Shown: in pieces, positions 7,369 through 11,551 of the stretch
Position numbering within the stretch: position 1 is the first letter of the stretch
Layout: each line of letters starts with the position of its first letter
Assembly (NCBI RefSeq): GCF_003334815.1
Contig: NZ_QOWO01000034.1
Length of the DNA: 40,339 bases
Reading direction: 5' to 3' (one strand)
Origin: Escherichia coli
Lineage (GTDB): Bacteria > Pseudomonadota > Gammaproteobacteria > Enterobacterales > Enterobacteriaceae
Position numbers and translations under genes: made by a program
The notes under the pieces: generated by a model
Told to the model about the DNA's origin: nothing
Database searches by the model: none
Seen by the model: the letters and a program-made list of their open reading frames with translations, nothing else

Positions 7369-7399
7369 TATAAGAAGCTGGTCGCATTGGGTATTCATT

Positions 7400-7482
7400 G
7401 CCTGATGCGACGCTTACGCGTCTTATCATGCCTACGGGAACCTGACCGTAGGCCGGATAAGGCGTACACGCCGCATCCGGCA
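7400..7482. repeat. BIME: two REP elements in inverted orientation
   Basis: GCCTGATGCGACGCTTACGCGTCTTATCATGCCTAC (7400-7435) and GTAGGCCGGATAAGGCGTACACGCCGCATCCGGCA (7448-7482) both match the enterobacterial REP consensus. Confidence 0.85.
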
Positions 7483-7543
7483 TAAACAAAGCGCACGTTG
7501 TTACAATTTACGTTTTAAACCTACGTGCGCAATAACCCAGACT

Positions 7544-7577
7544 ACGCCAACAGAAGTACGTTTCTGGGGCGTGTTTT
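7544..7577 (+). terminator. Candidate intrinsic terminator distal to aldB
   Basis: ACGCC/GGCGT and CAGAA/TTCTG form a split stem with a small internal loop and the apical loop GTACGT, followed by GTTTTG. Confidence 0.4.
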
Positions 7578-7846
7578 GTCAGGAGTTTAATCTCGCGTTT
7601 CGATGGTGAGCGGGCGAACCAGGCCGTAAATCACCATTGGTGATCCGAGGCCAATCAGCAATAAACGGTAGATAATTGAAGGTTTAATACGCTTAATCTG
7701 TACTGTGGATGTTTTACTGGAGTTATTCATTAGTTTGGCCAATAGTTCCACTATTTCAATATGATAAACCTCGTCCTGTTGAAAAACCAGACAGCACATT
7801 TAAGAAAGTATATAAAAAACAATATGTCGTTATATAAATAAGGAAA

Positions 7847-7875
7847 TTGCACTGCATCATGGCATTTCATAATAT
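7847..7875 (+). promoter_or_regulatory. Candidate sigma70 promoter for yiaWV
   Basis: TTGCAC (7847-7852), a 17-bp spacer, then TAATAT (7870-7875), about 38 nt upstream of the yiaW ATG. Predicted by eye only. Confidence 0.4.
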
Positions 7876-7912
7876 GCGTTAATTGTTCTTTTTTATATTC
7901 TTTGAGGGAAAT

Positions 7913-8236
7913 ATGTTCCTGGACTATTTTGCACTGGGAGTGCTTATTTTTGTATTTCTGGTGATCTTCTATGGGATCATTATTTTACATGATATTCCCT
8001 ACCTGATTGCCAAAAAACGTAATCATCCTCATGCCGACGCCATTCATGTTGCTGGTTGGGTGAGTCTTTTTACGTTACATGTTATCTGGCCGTTTTTGTG
8101 GATTTGGGCCACGCTTTACCGCCCGGAGCGGGGATGGGGAATGCAAAGCCATGATTCATCCGTTATGCAACTGCAACAGCGCATTGCCGGGCTGGAGAAA
8201 CAGCTCGCCGACATCAAATCCTCTTCTGCCGAGTAA
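7913..8236 (+). CDS. yiaW: Small inner-membrane protein, DUF3302 family (AaeX/YibI-like)
   Basis: The ORF-track TTG at 7883 is rejected in favour of ATG 7913, preceded by GAGGGA, giving 107 aa. It has two hydrophobic helices and a coiled-coil-like tail. It ends 5 nt before yiaV. Confidence 0.9.
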
Positions 8237-8241
8237 TACTT

Positions 8242-9378
8242 ATGGATTTACTGATTATTTTGACCTATGTGGCTTTTGCATGGGCAATGTTTAAGATCTT
8301 CAAAATTCCCGTAAATAAATGGACCATTCCCACAGCGGCCCTGGGTGGAATATTTATTGTCAGCGGTCTAATTCTGTTAATGAACTATAACCATCCGTAT
8401 ACCTTTAAAGCGCAAAAAGCGGTTATTTCTATTCCTGTTGTCCCACAGGTGACTGGTGTGGTGATTGAAGTGACGGATAAGAAAAATACGCTGATTAAAA
8501 AAGGTGAGGTGCTATTTCGACTGGACCCGACGCGTTATCAGGCGCGGGTGGATCGGCTGATGGCGGATATCGTTACCGCAGAACATAAACAGCGGGCGTT
8601 GGGCGCAGAGTTAGATGAGATGGCGGCGAATACTCAGCAGGCAAAGGCCACGCGGGATAAATTCGCTAAAGAGTATCAGCGTTACGCACGTGGCAGCCAG
8701 GCGAAAGTAAACCCGTTTTCAGAACGCGATATCGATGTGGCGCGGCAAAATTATCTGGCGCAGGAAGCCTCCGTGAAGTCATCGGCGGCGGAACAAAAAC
8801 AGATCCAGAGCCAGCTGGATAGCCTGGTGTTGGGTGAACATTCTCAAATCGCCAGCCTGAAAGCACAGCTCGCGGAAGCAAAATATAACCTTGAGCAGAC
8901 GATAGTGCGTGCGCCGAGCGATGGTTATGTGACCCAGGTACTGATTCGTCCGGGTACCTATGCCGCGTCGCTGCCGCTACGTCCGGTGATGGTGTTTATA
9001 CCCGATCAGAAACGACAAATCGTGGCGCAGTTCCGTCAGAACTCCTTGCTGCGACTGGCTCCTGGCGACGATGCGGAAGTGGTGTTTAATGCTCTGCCAG
9101 GTAAGGTATTCAGCGGTAAGCTGGCAGCCATTAGTCCAGCCGTTCCCGGCGGAGCTTATCAGTCGACCGGCACCTTACAGACGTTAAACACAGCGCCGGG
9201 TTCAGATGGCGTTATCGCGACCATTGAACTGGATGAGCACACTGATTTGAGCGCTTTACCAGACGGTATTTACGCCCAGGTGGCGGTTTACTCTGATCAT
9301 TTCAGCCATGTCTCGGTGATGCGCAAAGTGCTATTACGCATGACCAGCTGGGTGCATTACCTTTATCTCGATCATTAA
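8242..9378 (+). CDS. yiaV: HlyD/EmrA-family membrane fusion (periplasmic adaptor) protein
   Basis: 378-aa ORF with an N-terminal TM helix, a lipoyl-like hairpin (GEVLFRLD ... [12 protein letters not shown]) and a long central coiled coil. Confidence 0.92.
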
Positions 9379-10349
9379 TCTTCGCTTTCCGCCGCTTGTT
9401 CAGGCCGCAGTTGCTGCGACTGAGCAAGCTGGTGGCGAATTTCACGCAGCATTTCATCCAGCACATACTGGACCCGCCAGGGCTGGTATTCCCGTTTACG
9501 GAAGATAGCCACCAGATCCAGCCACCATTCATAGGGTTGCTGAAAGCAGGGCACCAGCGTGCCGTCTTGCAGGTCGCTCTGCACACTTTTGTCTGGCGCA
9601 AACACAATCCCCAGGTGATTTCGTGCCAGCTCCAGCGCAGATTGCGTGTTGTCGCAAACGTAATTTCCCTTCACGCGATAATCCCGCACCTCTTTACTCC
9701 CGGCGACGTTGAAGCGCCAGATATTCGCGTCGTCGATCATCATCGAGTCGATCAAAATACAGGAGTGATGTTCGAGTTCGTCAGGACGGCTAATGGGATG
9801 TTTCTCAAGATAGCGCTGGCTGGCATAAGCGGTTACGGCATATTGGGTAATAAAACTGGCAACCAGCGATTCATCTTTTGGTGGAGCGTAGCTGATTAAA
9901 ACATCACAATCATCAGGAAATTCGACGCCTTCATAAAAGGCATTACGCTCAAGATTGCAGGTTTTTAGCGATAAGGTGATATCACCGATATCTTTAATTT
10001 TATCGATTACATGTTTGGATAAATAGGTAATTATGCCGGTTGGGGCGTAGATGGTGACCCGACCACGTTTCTCATGCTTATAATCTGCAATAAAATTATT
10101 AAGTTGCTCGTTTCTGTCCAGCATGTCGTTGATGTACGGTAACAGCGCGGTGCCAAAAGGTGTGAGCATCAGCTGCCGGGTGGTTCGGTCAAAGACTTTT
10201 AAACCCACTTTTGATTCAAAATCAGCAAGATATTTGCTGACGTTGGCCTGTGCGATGCCAAGTACAGTCGCGGCATGGCTGATATTTTCACTGGCAGCGA
10301 TTACCGAGATAATTTTTAACTCCCGGTACTTAAGTTGTAATTTTGTCAT
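9375..10349 (-). CDS. yiaU: LysR-family transcriptional regulator
   Basis: 324-aa ORF with an N-terminal HTH ([23 protein letters not shown]) and a LysR substrate-binding domain. It is convergent with yiaV, with a 4-nt stop overlap, and divergent from yiaT. Confidence 0.92.
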
Positions 10350-10364
10350 CGCAACAGCCCAATT

Positions 10365-10382
10365 ATATATAATTTTATATAT
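10365..10382. promoter_or_regulatory. AT-rich inverted repeat in the yiaU-yiaT divergent region (candidate LysR-type box)
   Basis: ATATATAA-TT-TTATATAT has 8-bp arms and sits 16 nt upstream of the yiaU start. It fits a loose T-N11-A architecture. The sequence is low complexity, so a chance match is possible. Confidence 0.3.
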
Positions 10383-10472
10383 TACTATATAAATATGAAT
10401 CTTGCACCGGAGAAATTGTAAGCATTATTATGCCGACTCTTTTTTATCTTATTTTAAAATGGAATACCGGAC

Positions 10473-11213
10473 ATGTTAATTAATCGCAATATTGTGGCGT
10501 TATTTGCGTTGCCTTTTATGGCAAGCGCAACTGCTTCTGAATTATCCATTGGTGCTGGTGCGGCTTATAATGAATCGCCTAATCGCGGTTATAATGAAAA
10601 TACGAAGGCAATTCCGCTGATTAGTTATGAAGGTGATACTTTTTATGTTCGTCAGACCACGTTAGGTTTTATTCTGTCGCAAAGTGAAAAAAATGAACTT
10701 AGCCTGACCGCATCCTGGATGCCGCTGGAATTTGACCCTACCGATAATGACGATTATGCCATGCAACAGCTTGATAAGCGTGATAGTACGGCTATGGCGG
10801 GGGTTGCCTGGTATCACCACGAGCGTTGGGGAACCGTGAAAGCCTCTGCAGCTGCGGACGTTCTGGATAACAGCAACGGCTGGGTGGGGGAGCTATCGGT
10901 ATTCCACAAAATGCAGATAGGTCGTCTGTCGCTGACACCTGCGCTGGGCGTTCTCTATTATGACGAGAATTTCAGTGACTATTACTATGGCATTTCAGAG
11001 AGTGAGTCCCGTCGTAGCGGTCTGGCAAGTTATTCCGCGCAGGATGCCTGGGTGCCCTATGTCAGCCTGACGGCAAAATACCCGATAGGAGAGCACGTCG
11101 TATTGATGGCGAGCGCAGGATACAGCGAGCTGCCGGAAGAGATTACCGACAGCCCGATGATTGATCGTAATGAGAGTTTTACCTTTGTCACCGGGGTGAG
11201 CTGGCGTTTTTAA
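10473..11213 (+). CDS. yiaT: MipA/OmpV-family outer-membrane protein
   Basis: 246-aa ORF with a signal peptide (ALPFMASATA-SE), alternating beta-strand pattern and a C-terminal aromatic residue (..GVSWRF) typical of OM beta-barrels. Confidence 0.92.
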   Translation: MLINRNIVALFALPFMASATASELSIGAGAAYNESPNRGYNENTKAIPLISYEGDTFYVRQTTLGFILSQSEKNELSLTASWMPLEFDPTDNDDYAMQQLDKRDSTAMAGVAWYHHERWGTVKASAAADVLDNSNGWVGELSVFHKMQIGRLSLTPALGVLYYDENFSDYYYGISESESRRSGLASYSAQDAWVPYVSLTAKYPIGEHVVLMASAGYSELPEEITDSPMIDRNESFTFVTGVSWRF

Positions 11214-11468
11214 TTCACCGGTGGATGTCGGTGCGGCTGGTGCTCCGTCGTAATGCCACAAAGGTTGTTGCTCTGGATTGCTCTGTTCATACCGGGAACC
11301 TGGCGTCTGAATCAGGATCTTATGGCTGAACAATCCCTTGCCTTCAAATGTCGTAAATGGCGCATCGGCGGGCAGCAACAGGTTATGCAGTGACTCGACG
11401 TTGTCGGCCTGCTCCATGCAATACGGTTTAATGACGTTGGCTATTTCCGGCAGATTTTTCAGAAACAT
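11214..11468 (-). pseudogene. Probable gene remnant downstream of sgbE (K-12 annotates ysaC/ysaD remnants in this neighbourhood; exact boundaries not recalled)
   Basis: The ORF-track frame 10995..11468 starts MFLKNLPEIANVIKPYCMEQADNVESLHNLLLPADAPFTTFEGKG with no SD. It runs antisense into the yiaT 3' end. Only the non-overlapping part looks protein-like. Confidence 0.4.
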
Positions 11469-11529
11469 ACTGGTTTAACGCCAGCAGCGTGGAAGCGGCG
11501 TTACAGCAAGGAACATATCAATTCGTAGT

Positions 11530-11551
11530 GCCGGGGCGATGAAGCCCCGGC
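11530..11551 (-). terminator. GC-rich hairpin 9 nt after the sgbE stop (operon-end structure, non-canonical terminator)
   Basis: GCCGGGGC/GCCCCGGC forms an 8-bp stem with a 6-nt loop. No U-tract follows on the minus strand. Confidence 0.35.

Follow-up and report, generated by a model that had tools for sequence, protein, structure and literature searches.

A DUF3302 membrane protein paired with an EmrA-like adaptor, and an operator-promoter pattern shared with yiaT, in the yiaWVUT block of Escherichia coli

The yiaW-yiaV-yiaU-yiaT block of Escherichia coli lies in a 40,339-nucleotide stretch of contig NZ_QOWO01000034.1 (the whole of which is called the window here), where it had been singled out as an envelope module built on an efflux-like adaptor without a pump gene. 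We found that a DUF3302 gene followed directly by an adaptor gene, with no pump gene recurring beside them, is the arrangement of this family at large, that the E. coli adaptor YiaV resembles EmrA in fold and length, and that one operator-promoter pattern precedes both yiaWV and yiaT. We prefer the reading that YiaW and YiaV form a pump-less adaptor machine that is co-regulated with yiaT by YiaU; taken as a whole, it seems to us to stand about an even chance of being right. All four genes are already annotated and the regulator has been studied, and no new genes are reported here. Three points appear to be undescribed in the searchable literature: that DUF3302 is universally paired with an EmrA-type adaptor and no pump gene, that yiaWV is lineage-specific in origin, and that it has a promoter cassette in common with yiaT. 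We found no paper in that literature assigning a function to the DUF3302-adaptor cassette.

A DUF3302-adaptor pair without a pump gene

Three samples of loci were surveyed: 80 GTDB species-level loci, all from Enterobacterales; four distant loci (Dongia soli, Marinobacter, Aeromonas and one further); and 80 metagenome loci, 15 of which were too short to judge and one of which was unclear. A DUF3302 gene followed by a gene for a 378-aa adaptor was present in all 80 Enterobacterales loci, the pair recurred among unrelated neighbours in four of the four distant loci, and the adaptor lay directly downstream of the DUF3302 gene in 64 of the 65 informative metagenome loci. Gaps between the two genes ranged from −8 to +23 nt in the metagenome loci, with many overlaps of 1 or 4 nt, a pattern that would be expected for translational coupling. 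Pfam tallies of the neighbours gave 93 families for one set of 79 flanking proteins and 47 families for another of 51, and no ABC, RND, FUSC or outer-membrane-factor family recurred beside the cassette among these 79 and 51 proteins. The MFS family came up three times in the set of 79, where it belonged to unrelated EmrAB-like operons, and unrelated EmrAB-like or RND operons lay nearby in a few loci (L060, L061, L070 and L087). The adaptor-only arrangement is the rule for the DUF3302-adaptor family and not an oddity of E. coli. The absence of a pump gene beside yiaWV, as originally predicted, held in the window and wherever the cassette was found, and the survey proposed for an adjacent pump gene in other genomes returned none that recurs in the 80 Enterobacterales, 4 distant and 64 metagenome loci.

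The original prediction had likened yiaW-yiaV to aaeX-aaeA. The resemblance in gene layout stands, in that a small two-helix membrane protein precedes an EmrA-like adaptor with a conserved C-terminal R-K...R helix and a LysR regulator (AaeR at the aae locus) is encoded nearby, but it does not extend to detectable homology: AaeX belongs to DUF1656 and YiaW to DUF3302. BLASTP found no similarity between YiaW and AaeX, and hhalign gave no sign of a remote relationship between DUF3302 and DUF1656 (probability 0.3%). AaeA shares only 21% identity with YiaV and has no equivalent of the first YiaV membrane helix, YiaU scores 33.7 bits against an AaeR cut-off of 425, and the FUSC-family pump AaeB has no counterpart at yiaWV. 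YdhIJK likewise combines a small membrane protein and an adaptor with a PET/FUSC pump.

A closer comparison is yibI-yibH, about 17 kb away in K-12, whose products are 75% (YiaW/YibI) and 77% (YiaV/YibH) identical to those of yiaWV, with the same lengths and architecture and likewise no pump gene; it differs in having neither yiaU nor yiaT as a neighbour. This is the copy found throughout Enterobacterales: 40 of the 80 loci showed mtlA, then yibI-yibH, then yibF-selA-selB-(yiaY)-aldB, and 35 held the pair in varied other contexts. In the single paper with repeated mention of yibH, the gene serves only as a neutral integration site (PMC5852967). Pairs with an adaptor at least 87% identical to YiaV were confined to Escherichia, some Citrobacter and one further enterobacterium, always in the order aldB, yiaW-yiaV, yiaU, yiaT, and in a neighbour-joining tree the YiaV clade branched outside the whole Enterobacterales YibH clade. 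From these comparisons, yiaWV is a lineage-restricted second copy of a yibIH-type cassette, which would fit either an old duplicate kept in few lineages or horizontal acquisition. Outside this group, a yiaU or yiaT neighbour is missing from almost every DUF3302-adaptor pair. Within E. coli, the four-gene block was present at no less than 80% coverage in 3722 of 5426 complete genomes and wholly lacking in about 31%; the four genes occur as a set or not at all, and in some genomes aldB is instead followed directly by a cluster of glycoside hydrolase 127 (GH127), MFS and AraC-family genes.

The adaptor itself was compared with known pump adaptors. YiaV carries the Pfam domains CusB_dom_1, HlyD_D23 and HlyD_3, and Pfam, alignment and Foldseek placed its lipoyl domain, alpha-hairpin and beta-barrel in the canonical adaptor order. 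Its best sequence match in the PDB was EmrA (8zar, E = 7.5e-12), with YiaV 53-298 matching EmrA 51-293 nearly without gaps, and a Foldseek search with the YiaV model returned EmrA chains of EmrAB-TolC as top matches (probability 1.00). That model was built on homologues of at least 74% identity, and its reading is restricted here to helices and domain order; it shows a confident alpha-hairpin at 97-152 and 161-218. Two hydrophobic N-terminal helices (1-22 and 27-50), joined by a Lys-rich loop, are kept across Alpha- and Gammaproteobacteria and probably leave the N-terminus in the periplasm. The beta-barrel region holds a long unstructured loop at about 299-323 and is accompanied by a conserved amphipathic C-terminal helix. 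The most conserved parts in distant homologues were the N-terminal double helix, with an invariant NYNHPYT, and the C-terminal helix, whereas the hairpin varied in length and was about 33 residues shorter in Aeromonas-type homologues.

EmrAB-TolC is built around a tube of six EmrA in which the EmrA C-terminal helix packs on the base of the hairpin and a beta-barrel loop (294-317) grips a periplasmic helix bundle extending from two EmrB membrane helices (PMC13139468). EmrA and YiaV have in common a membrane anchor, a lipoyl domain, a long alpha-hairpin of near-equal length, a beta-barrel and a C-terminal helix; both have the long beta-barrel loop at an equivalent position, and neither has a membrane-proximal domain. 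They differ in that YiaV has two N-terminal hydrophobic helices and EmrA one (PMC13139468), and in that no EmrB-like transporter gene adjoins yiaV-type adaptors, for which the DUF3302 partner is obligatory. YiaV also fell short of every NCBIfam cut-off that we compared (MdtN, 112.2 bits against 376; EmrA/EmrK, 112 against 390.8; AaeA, 63.4 against 400; EmrA, 52.5 against 563), so that for the Emr families scores of 52-112 bits face curated cut-offs of 391-563. By eye, the hairpin tip of YiaV showed no clear match to the 'RLS' TolC-binding motif; EmrA also misfits the AcrA pattern. YiaV may dock on TolC, given a hairpin equal in length to that of EmrA. The protein is listed as an uncharacterized membrane fusion protein (TCDB 8.A.1.1.4; PMC10971958). 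Two candidates for natural YiaW-YiaV fusions were discarded, P0124 (501 aa) as a read-through into antisense yiaU and P0130 as an internal duplication.

YiaW matched Pfam DUF3302 (PF11742) with 146.7 bits (cut-off 32), a family with 881 representatives at 50% clustering. Its AlphaFold2 model (predicted local distance difference test, pLDDT, 84.5) comprises helices at 2-35, 41-68 and 82-105; the first two form a hairpin that turns tightly at RNHPH and scores above 90 for residues 1-60, and a linker leads to the third. Among 42 diverse homologues 32 positions were invariant, five His and two Asp among them; the invariant residues of YiaW include H26, D27, R36, H38, P39, D42, H45 and H56, and its second helix is rich in tryptophan. 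A global topology study, the source of the UniProt name 'inner membrane protein', reportedly placed the YiaW C-terminus in the cytoplasm; on that topology the conserved loop would be periplasmic. An N-H-P motif stands beside a membrane helix in both proteins, within NYNHPYT after helix 2 of YiaV and within RNHPH at the hairpin turn of YiaW, and several invariant His lie near the YiaV C-terminus, including the last residue, H378. The N-H-P motifs and C-terminal His residues hint at metal or proton chemistry.

Several unusual settings of the pair were recorded. In Aeromonas (L093:6001-9244) and in the metagenome loci L098, L108, L115, L125 and L128 it is followed by an open reading frame (ORF) of 586-622 aa, which is a DEAD/ResIII helicase in L093, L098 and L108 and begins 5-7 nt after the adaptor gene in L093 and L108; the adaptor is shorter (345 aa) in L108, L115, L125, L128 and L093. 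The helicase ORF may simply reflect conserved local gene order. In three Yersinia loci (L006-L008, 7673-9137) the pair and a YdgH/BhsA-like gene stand between phage integrase-excisionase and recT-type early genes, which places them within an intact or decayed prophage. We considered a phage moron or superinfection-exclusion role on account of the Yersinia loci and rejected it as a general explanation. PADLOC gave no match and PHROGs nothing specific for the cassette; the DUF3302 gene was on only 2 of 2.9 million viral contigs, and a phage collection yielded doubtful or distant matches only, including two 77% matches labelled 'Campylobacter phage' that resemble E. coli yibH DNA.

Serratia proteamaculans CCUG 14510 (L087:6234-9494) carries a second, divergent pair, whose DUF3302 protein shares 71% identity with YiaW and whose adaptor shares 60% with YiaV. 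The two genes follow, in an operon-like arrangement, the gene for a DUF3313 protein that has a lipobox (LTAC followed by Ser at +2). A divergent LysR gene lies upstream (36% identical to YiaU, E = 2e-61), and the spacer contains the palindrome TGTATATCA-N4-TGATATACA. The DUF3302-adaptor pairs of L053, L049 and L033 likewise have DUF3313 genes at their flanks. The Serratia layout seems to echo the combination of regulator and outer-membrane protein in yiaWVUT, and we count this apparent parallel in favour of a pump-less machine working with an outer-membrane partner.

An operator-promoter pattern common to yiaWV and yiaT

Upstream of both yiaW and yiaT we identified a predicted LysR-type operator, made up of an ATAT-dyad box and a TATATAAATA box, next to a predicted promoter (Table 1). 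A -10-like hexamer lies 17 nt past the -35 at both genes. The 22-nt pattern TATATAAATA-N6-TTGCAC occurred at exactly two sites in the window, even when two mismatches were allowed (0.01 expected by chance): at 7831-7852, ending 61 nt before the yiaW ATG, and at 10386-10407, 66 nt before the yiaT ATG. The two promoter regions aligned over about 110 nt. When sequences upstream of yiaW were compared by phylogenetic footprinting, the operator was the sole block conserved across Escherichia and Citrobacter, and the rest was unalignable; a very similar block in the yiaU-yiaT spacer was invariant across the eight species-level loci examined. We also searched 177 loci with a pattern one base shorter (final C dropped) and zero mismatches. 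It was found only in loci with the yiaWVUT block, at positions that fit both places wherever coordinates were compared, and it was absent upstream of yibI. Because the operator-promoter pattern occurs only at these two promoters and is conserved across genera, we propose that yiaWV and yiaT are co-regulated. The predicted yiaWV promoter was not listed by a consensus promoter scanner, and consensus promoter and terminator scans of the block gave counts close to shuffle expectation.

Table 1. Positions of the genes and predicted control elements of the yiaWVUT block in the window
Feature	Position	Strand	Description
Predicted LysR-type operator upstream of yiaW	7809-7840	+	ATAT-N8-ATAT dyad box 7809-7826; TATATAAATA box 7831-7840
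Predicted sigma-70 promoter of yiaWV	7847-7875	+	-35 TTGCAC 7847-7852; 17-nt spacer; -10 TAATAT 7870-7875
yiaW	7913-8236	+	107 aa; DUF3302 inner-membrane protein; Pfam, AlphaFold2, invariant residues
yiaV	8242-9378	+	378 aa; EmrA-type periplasmic adaptor; Pfam, PDB and fold matches, hydropathy
yiaU (CsuR, LpsR)	9375-10349	-	324 aa; LysR-type regulator; Pfam, literature (PMC9068703)
Matching predicted operator in yiaU-yiaT spacer	10366-10395	+	ATAT-dyad box 10366-10383; TATATAAATA 10386-10395
Predicted yiaT promoter	10402-10431	+	-35 TTGCAC 10402-10407; -10 TTATTA 10425-10430 (TTATTA/TATTAT to 10431)
yiaT	10473-11213	+	246 aa; MipA/OmpV-family outer-membrane protein; Pfam, N-terminal sequence

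Both sites appear to have the textbook layout of a LysR-activated promoter. The yiaT promoter cassette may have been copied to a place ahead of yiaWV, or that of yiaWV to a place ahead of yiaT, and one factor would control both. YiaU, in which Pfam recognizes HTH_1 and LysR_substrate, is the obvious candidate for control of both predicted operators. The arrangement agrees with classical divergent LysR systems (recognition near -65, activation near -35) in that YiaU has both LysR domains, that the dyad and second box abut the yiaT -35 just upstream of yiaU (17-46 nt from its start codon), as is usual for autoregulation, and that yiaT responds to a yiaU deletion. It departs from them in that a second copy of the operator-promoter would control yiaWV, which runs towards yiaU and ends in a stop codon overlapping that of the regulator gene, and in that the published list of in vivo binding sites does not include these two.

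The YiaU study under the name CsuR is reportedly that of Shimada et al. in 2022 (Microbiology 168:001166), as cited in PMC9308461. Chromatin immunoprecipitation (ChIP) and systematic evolution of ligands by exponential enrichment (SELEX) had been put forward as experiments to do on YiaU, but such work was already in print (PMC8464067; PMC9068703; PMC9308461): ChIP-exo, RNA-seq and genomic SELEX have all been applied to the protein, which was published as LpsR and as CsuR. Its reported regulon bears on lipopolysaccharide (LPS) core genes and cell-surface properties (PMC9068703; PMC9308461), and a yiaU deletion raised the yiaT transcript by 2.8 log2 (PMC9068703). The supplements of PMC9068703 contain no data on yiaV or yiaW. 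The yiaU-yiaV pair is listed as a convergent transcript overlap, or 'excludon' (PMC12288877), which might couple these genes in another way.

YiaT matched Pfam MipA (PF06629) over the full model (positions 1-221 of 221; 174.7 bits, cut-off 24.2), and its N-terminus, MLINRNIVALFALPFMASATA, is signal-peptide-like. It has been used as an outer-membrane display anchor, as befits the MipA/OmpV family, but scored 90 bits against an OmpV equivalog cut-off of 400. As a MipA-family protein, YiaT is related to the scaffold of MltA and PBP1B.

How far yiaU and yiaT belong with yiaWV, as had been claimed, depends on the comparison. The shared operator-promoter and the joint presence or absence of the four genes in E. 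coli support the association, but five loci from Enterobacter and Lelliottia have no intervening yiaWV: there the stop codon of aldB abuts or overlaps that of a yiaU orthologue (68-71% identical). The Enterobacter loci compared end inside yiaU. On an evolutionary view, the LysR regulator credited to the module is not reserved for yiaWV, since it also occurs without the pair and most pairs lack a yiaU neighbour.

Weighing the explanations

In the reading that we prefer, yiaW-yiaV is a self-contained two-gene cassette, encoding a two-helix DUF3302 membrane protein and an EmrA-like adaptor with two N-terminal membrane helices. Since no transporter gene is ever part of the cassette and its membrane-embedded portions rank among the best conserved, YiaW is most likely the obligate partner of the adaptor in the inner membrane. 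By analogy with EmrA, six YiaV would assemble into a tube of EmrA length able to reach TolC, at the base of which the protruding, His/Asp-rich tip of the YiaW hairpin might take the place of the EmrB bundle that EmrA grips. YiaU would switch yiaWV and yiaT together as part of a cell-envelope response. The gene identities, the pairing, the lack of a pump gene, the paralogy with yibIH, the EmrA-like fold and length and the shared cis-element were observed directly; the YiaW-YiaV complex, its docking on TolC, transport activity and the binding of YiaU at these two sites are what we infer from them.

Several observations weigh against this proposal. The YiaV model has a mean pLDDT of 58.9 and is poor outside the hairpin, and the shorter hairpin of Aeromonas-type homologues is awkward for a fixed TolC-docking geometry. 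Because the C-terminal helix of EmrA packs on the hairpin, the conserved tail of YiaV may not be membrane-proximal. The charge distribution of YiaW is ambiguous as to topology, and if its conserved loop were cytoplasmic, the idea of an EmrB-like plug would fail. The neighbour-joining tree carries no support values. With regard to regulation, yiaU exists without yiaWV, as its position against aldB in Enterobacter and Lelliottia indicates; the YiaU ChIP-exo list has no site at yiaT or yiaW (PMC8464067 supplement), and the RNA-seq table that lists yiaT lists neither yiaW nor yiaV (PMC9068703). A macrophage-adapted clone carried an IS1 insertion in yiaW, yet disruption of yiaW alone had no effect on phagosome maturation in macrophages, the single assay reported (PMC5495878).

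YiaV might instead, as first envisaged, serve a pump encoded elsewhere. YiaW would then be a minor accessory component in the manner of AaeX or AcrZ, and TolC would complete a tripartite efflux system; an orphan PET/FUSC-family or DHA2-MFS transporter would be the candidate. The E. coli FUSC-family proteins YccS, YhfK and YeeA are not known to have an adjacent adaptor. The best family matches of YiaV are indeed pump adaptors (MdtN and EmrA/EmrK at about 112 bits, AaeA at 63 bits, EmrA in the PDB), and a few loci have the unrelated EmrAB-like or RND operons noted above, but all curated adaptor cut-offs were missed by a wide margin. Known adaptors are nearly always encoded beside their own pump, whereas no transporter family recurs beside this cassette in about 150 loci from Alpha- and Gammaproteobacteria, and the two genes of the cassette travel together into a wide range of settings. 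YiaW is also far more conserved than would be expected of an accessory subunit. We therefore regard a distant pump as a serious but doubtful alternative. It is unlikely, in our judgement, that the proteins do not transport at all and instead form a periplasm-spanning structural or sensing assembly with YiaT, under YiaU, for envelope or peptidoglycan maintenance. Such a role would suit a control region held in common with an outer-membrane MipA-family gene, the LPS and cell-surface regulon of YiaU (PMC9308461), the link of the Serratia paralogue to an outer-membrane lipoprotein rather than a pump, and the variable hairpin; a yiaW deletion is also reported, in work cited in PMC12844161, to raise Ca2+-mediated transformation efficiency. 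Against it, YiaV has the fold and the order of domains seen in efflux adaptors, which assemble into closed tubes, and neither a MipA-family nor a lipoprotein gene lies beside most copies of the cassette.

The neighbourhood could also be a historical accident, in which yiaWV landed beside an independent LysR-target pair, yiaU-yiaT, with no functional or regulatory tie. The five Enterobacter and Lelliottia loci in which yiaU abuts aldB, the many pairs without yiaU or yiaT, the lack of reported ChIP-exo signal at this locus and the variability of the aldB-sgbE interval would all agree with this. What decides against it is the 22-nt operator and -35 pattern, which is confined to the yiaW and yiaT promoters, conserved at each of them in different genera, not found at any other DUF3302 locus and embedded in promoters that align well beyond it; we consider a mere accident very unlikely.

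A bolder extension of the pump-less adaptor machine is that DUF3302-adaptor pairs represent a distinct minimal envelope-spanning machine, in which a ring of two-helix proteins with an invariant His/Asp cluster, in place of a conventional transporter, forms the inner-membrane base of an EmrA-like tube and serves as a valve or as a conduit, either passive or proton-coupled, possibly without any classical pump, and is co-induced in yiaWVUT with a dedicated outer-membrane partner (YiaT here, a DUF3313 lipoprotein in Serratia). We offer this as speculation that is more likely wrong than right by some distance. The cassette is widespread in Proteobacteria and E. coli K-12 has two copies of it. If DUF3302 proteins are the inner-membrane partners of these adaptors, they would constitute an exception to the rule that an adaptor needs a pump and would explain a set of 'orphan' adaptors. 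The shared operator-promoter turns an argument from neighbourhood into a testable case of one regulator, two promoters and two 30-bp sites, and gives a way towards the inducer and, through it, the substrate.

Locus layout and neighbouring features

Positions 7500-11500 of the window were 100% identical to E. coli K-12 MG1655, whose RefSeq annotation places yiaW, yiaV, yiaU and yiaT between aldB and sgbE. The ORFs, Pfam and this annotation confirmed the identity and order that had been predicted for the four genes. The region had been taken to begin at 7847, which is the first base of the -35-like TTGCAC and not the start of yiaW (ATG at 7913); a TTG at 7883 is merely the start of the mechanically longest ORF. 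The arrangement within the block was also as described: the yiaW stop codon (TAA, 8234-8236) is separated from the yiaV ATG by 5 nt, yiaV and yiaU converge with their stop codons overlapping in TTAA (9375-9378), and yiaU and yiaT diverge from a spacer of 123 bp. The block contains no transporter gene, being preceded by aldB and followed by pseudogene fragments and then sgbE, and no known RNA families were found in it.

The block is AT-richer than its neighbours, as had been noted, and the effect is real but modest: GC was 0.47-0.51 in the four genes and 0.29-0.41 in the spacers, compared with 0.55 in aldB and 0.57 in sgbE. At third codon positions it was 0.49-0.54 in the block, 0.63 in aldB and 0.61-0.62 in the paralogues yibI and yibH.

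A small ORF on the minus strand (7587-7799), divergent from yiaW, starts just past the predicted operator. RefSeq gives it as a 47-aa hypothetical protein, while the mechanical ORF of 70 aa includes a hydrophobic stretch; it belongs to no Pfam family and has a 104-aa counterpart in Citrobacter (L004:7168-7482). The operator upstream of yiaW might control it as well. Palindromic repeats resembling repetitive extragenic palindromes and bacterial interspersed mosaic elements (REP/BIME) lie directly downstream of aldB at 7395-7490 (gcctgatgcgacgcttacgcg... and ...ggccggataaggcgtacacgccgcatccggc).

On the other side of the block, at about 11235-11530, K-12 holds only fragments of a GH127 gene and an AraC-family gene. 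Other E. coli strains have the complete GH127-MFS-AraC cluster, with or without yiaWVUT (for example L177:6894-11315), and because this cluster is full in some strains and fragmentary in others, the aldB-sgbE interval is a variable region of E. coli. In Shigella flexneri SFBU0723 (L063), yiaV, yiaU, yiaT and aldB are all fragmented and look like pseudogenes. Copies of IS1 interrupt yiaW or sit inside the block in the E. coli isolates E70, VTB97584v and GF4; the insertion from the macrophage-adaptation experiment was at nucleotide 263 of yiaW (PMC5495878), and the gene may be a hot spot for IS1. In mixed biofilms, yiaV was mildly induced (PMC3646849).

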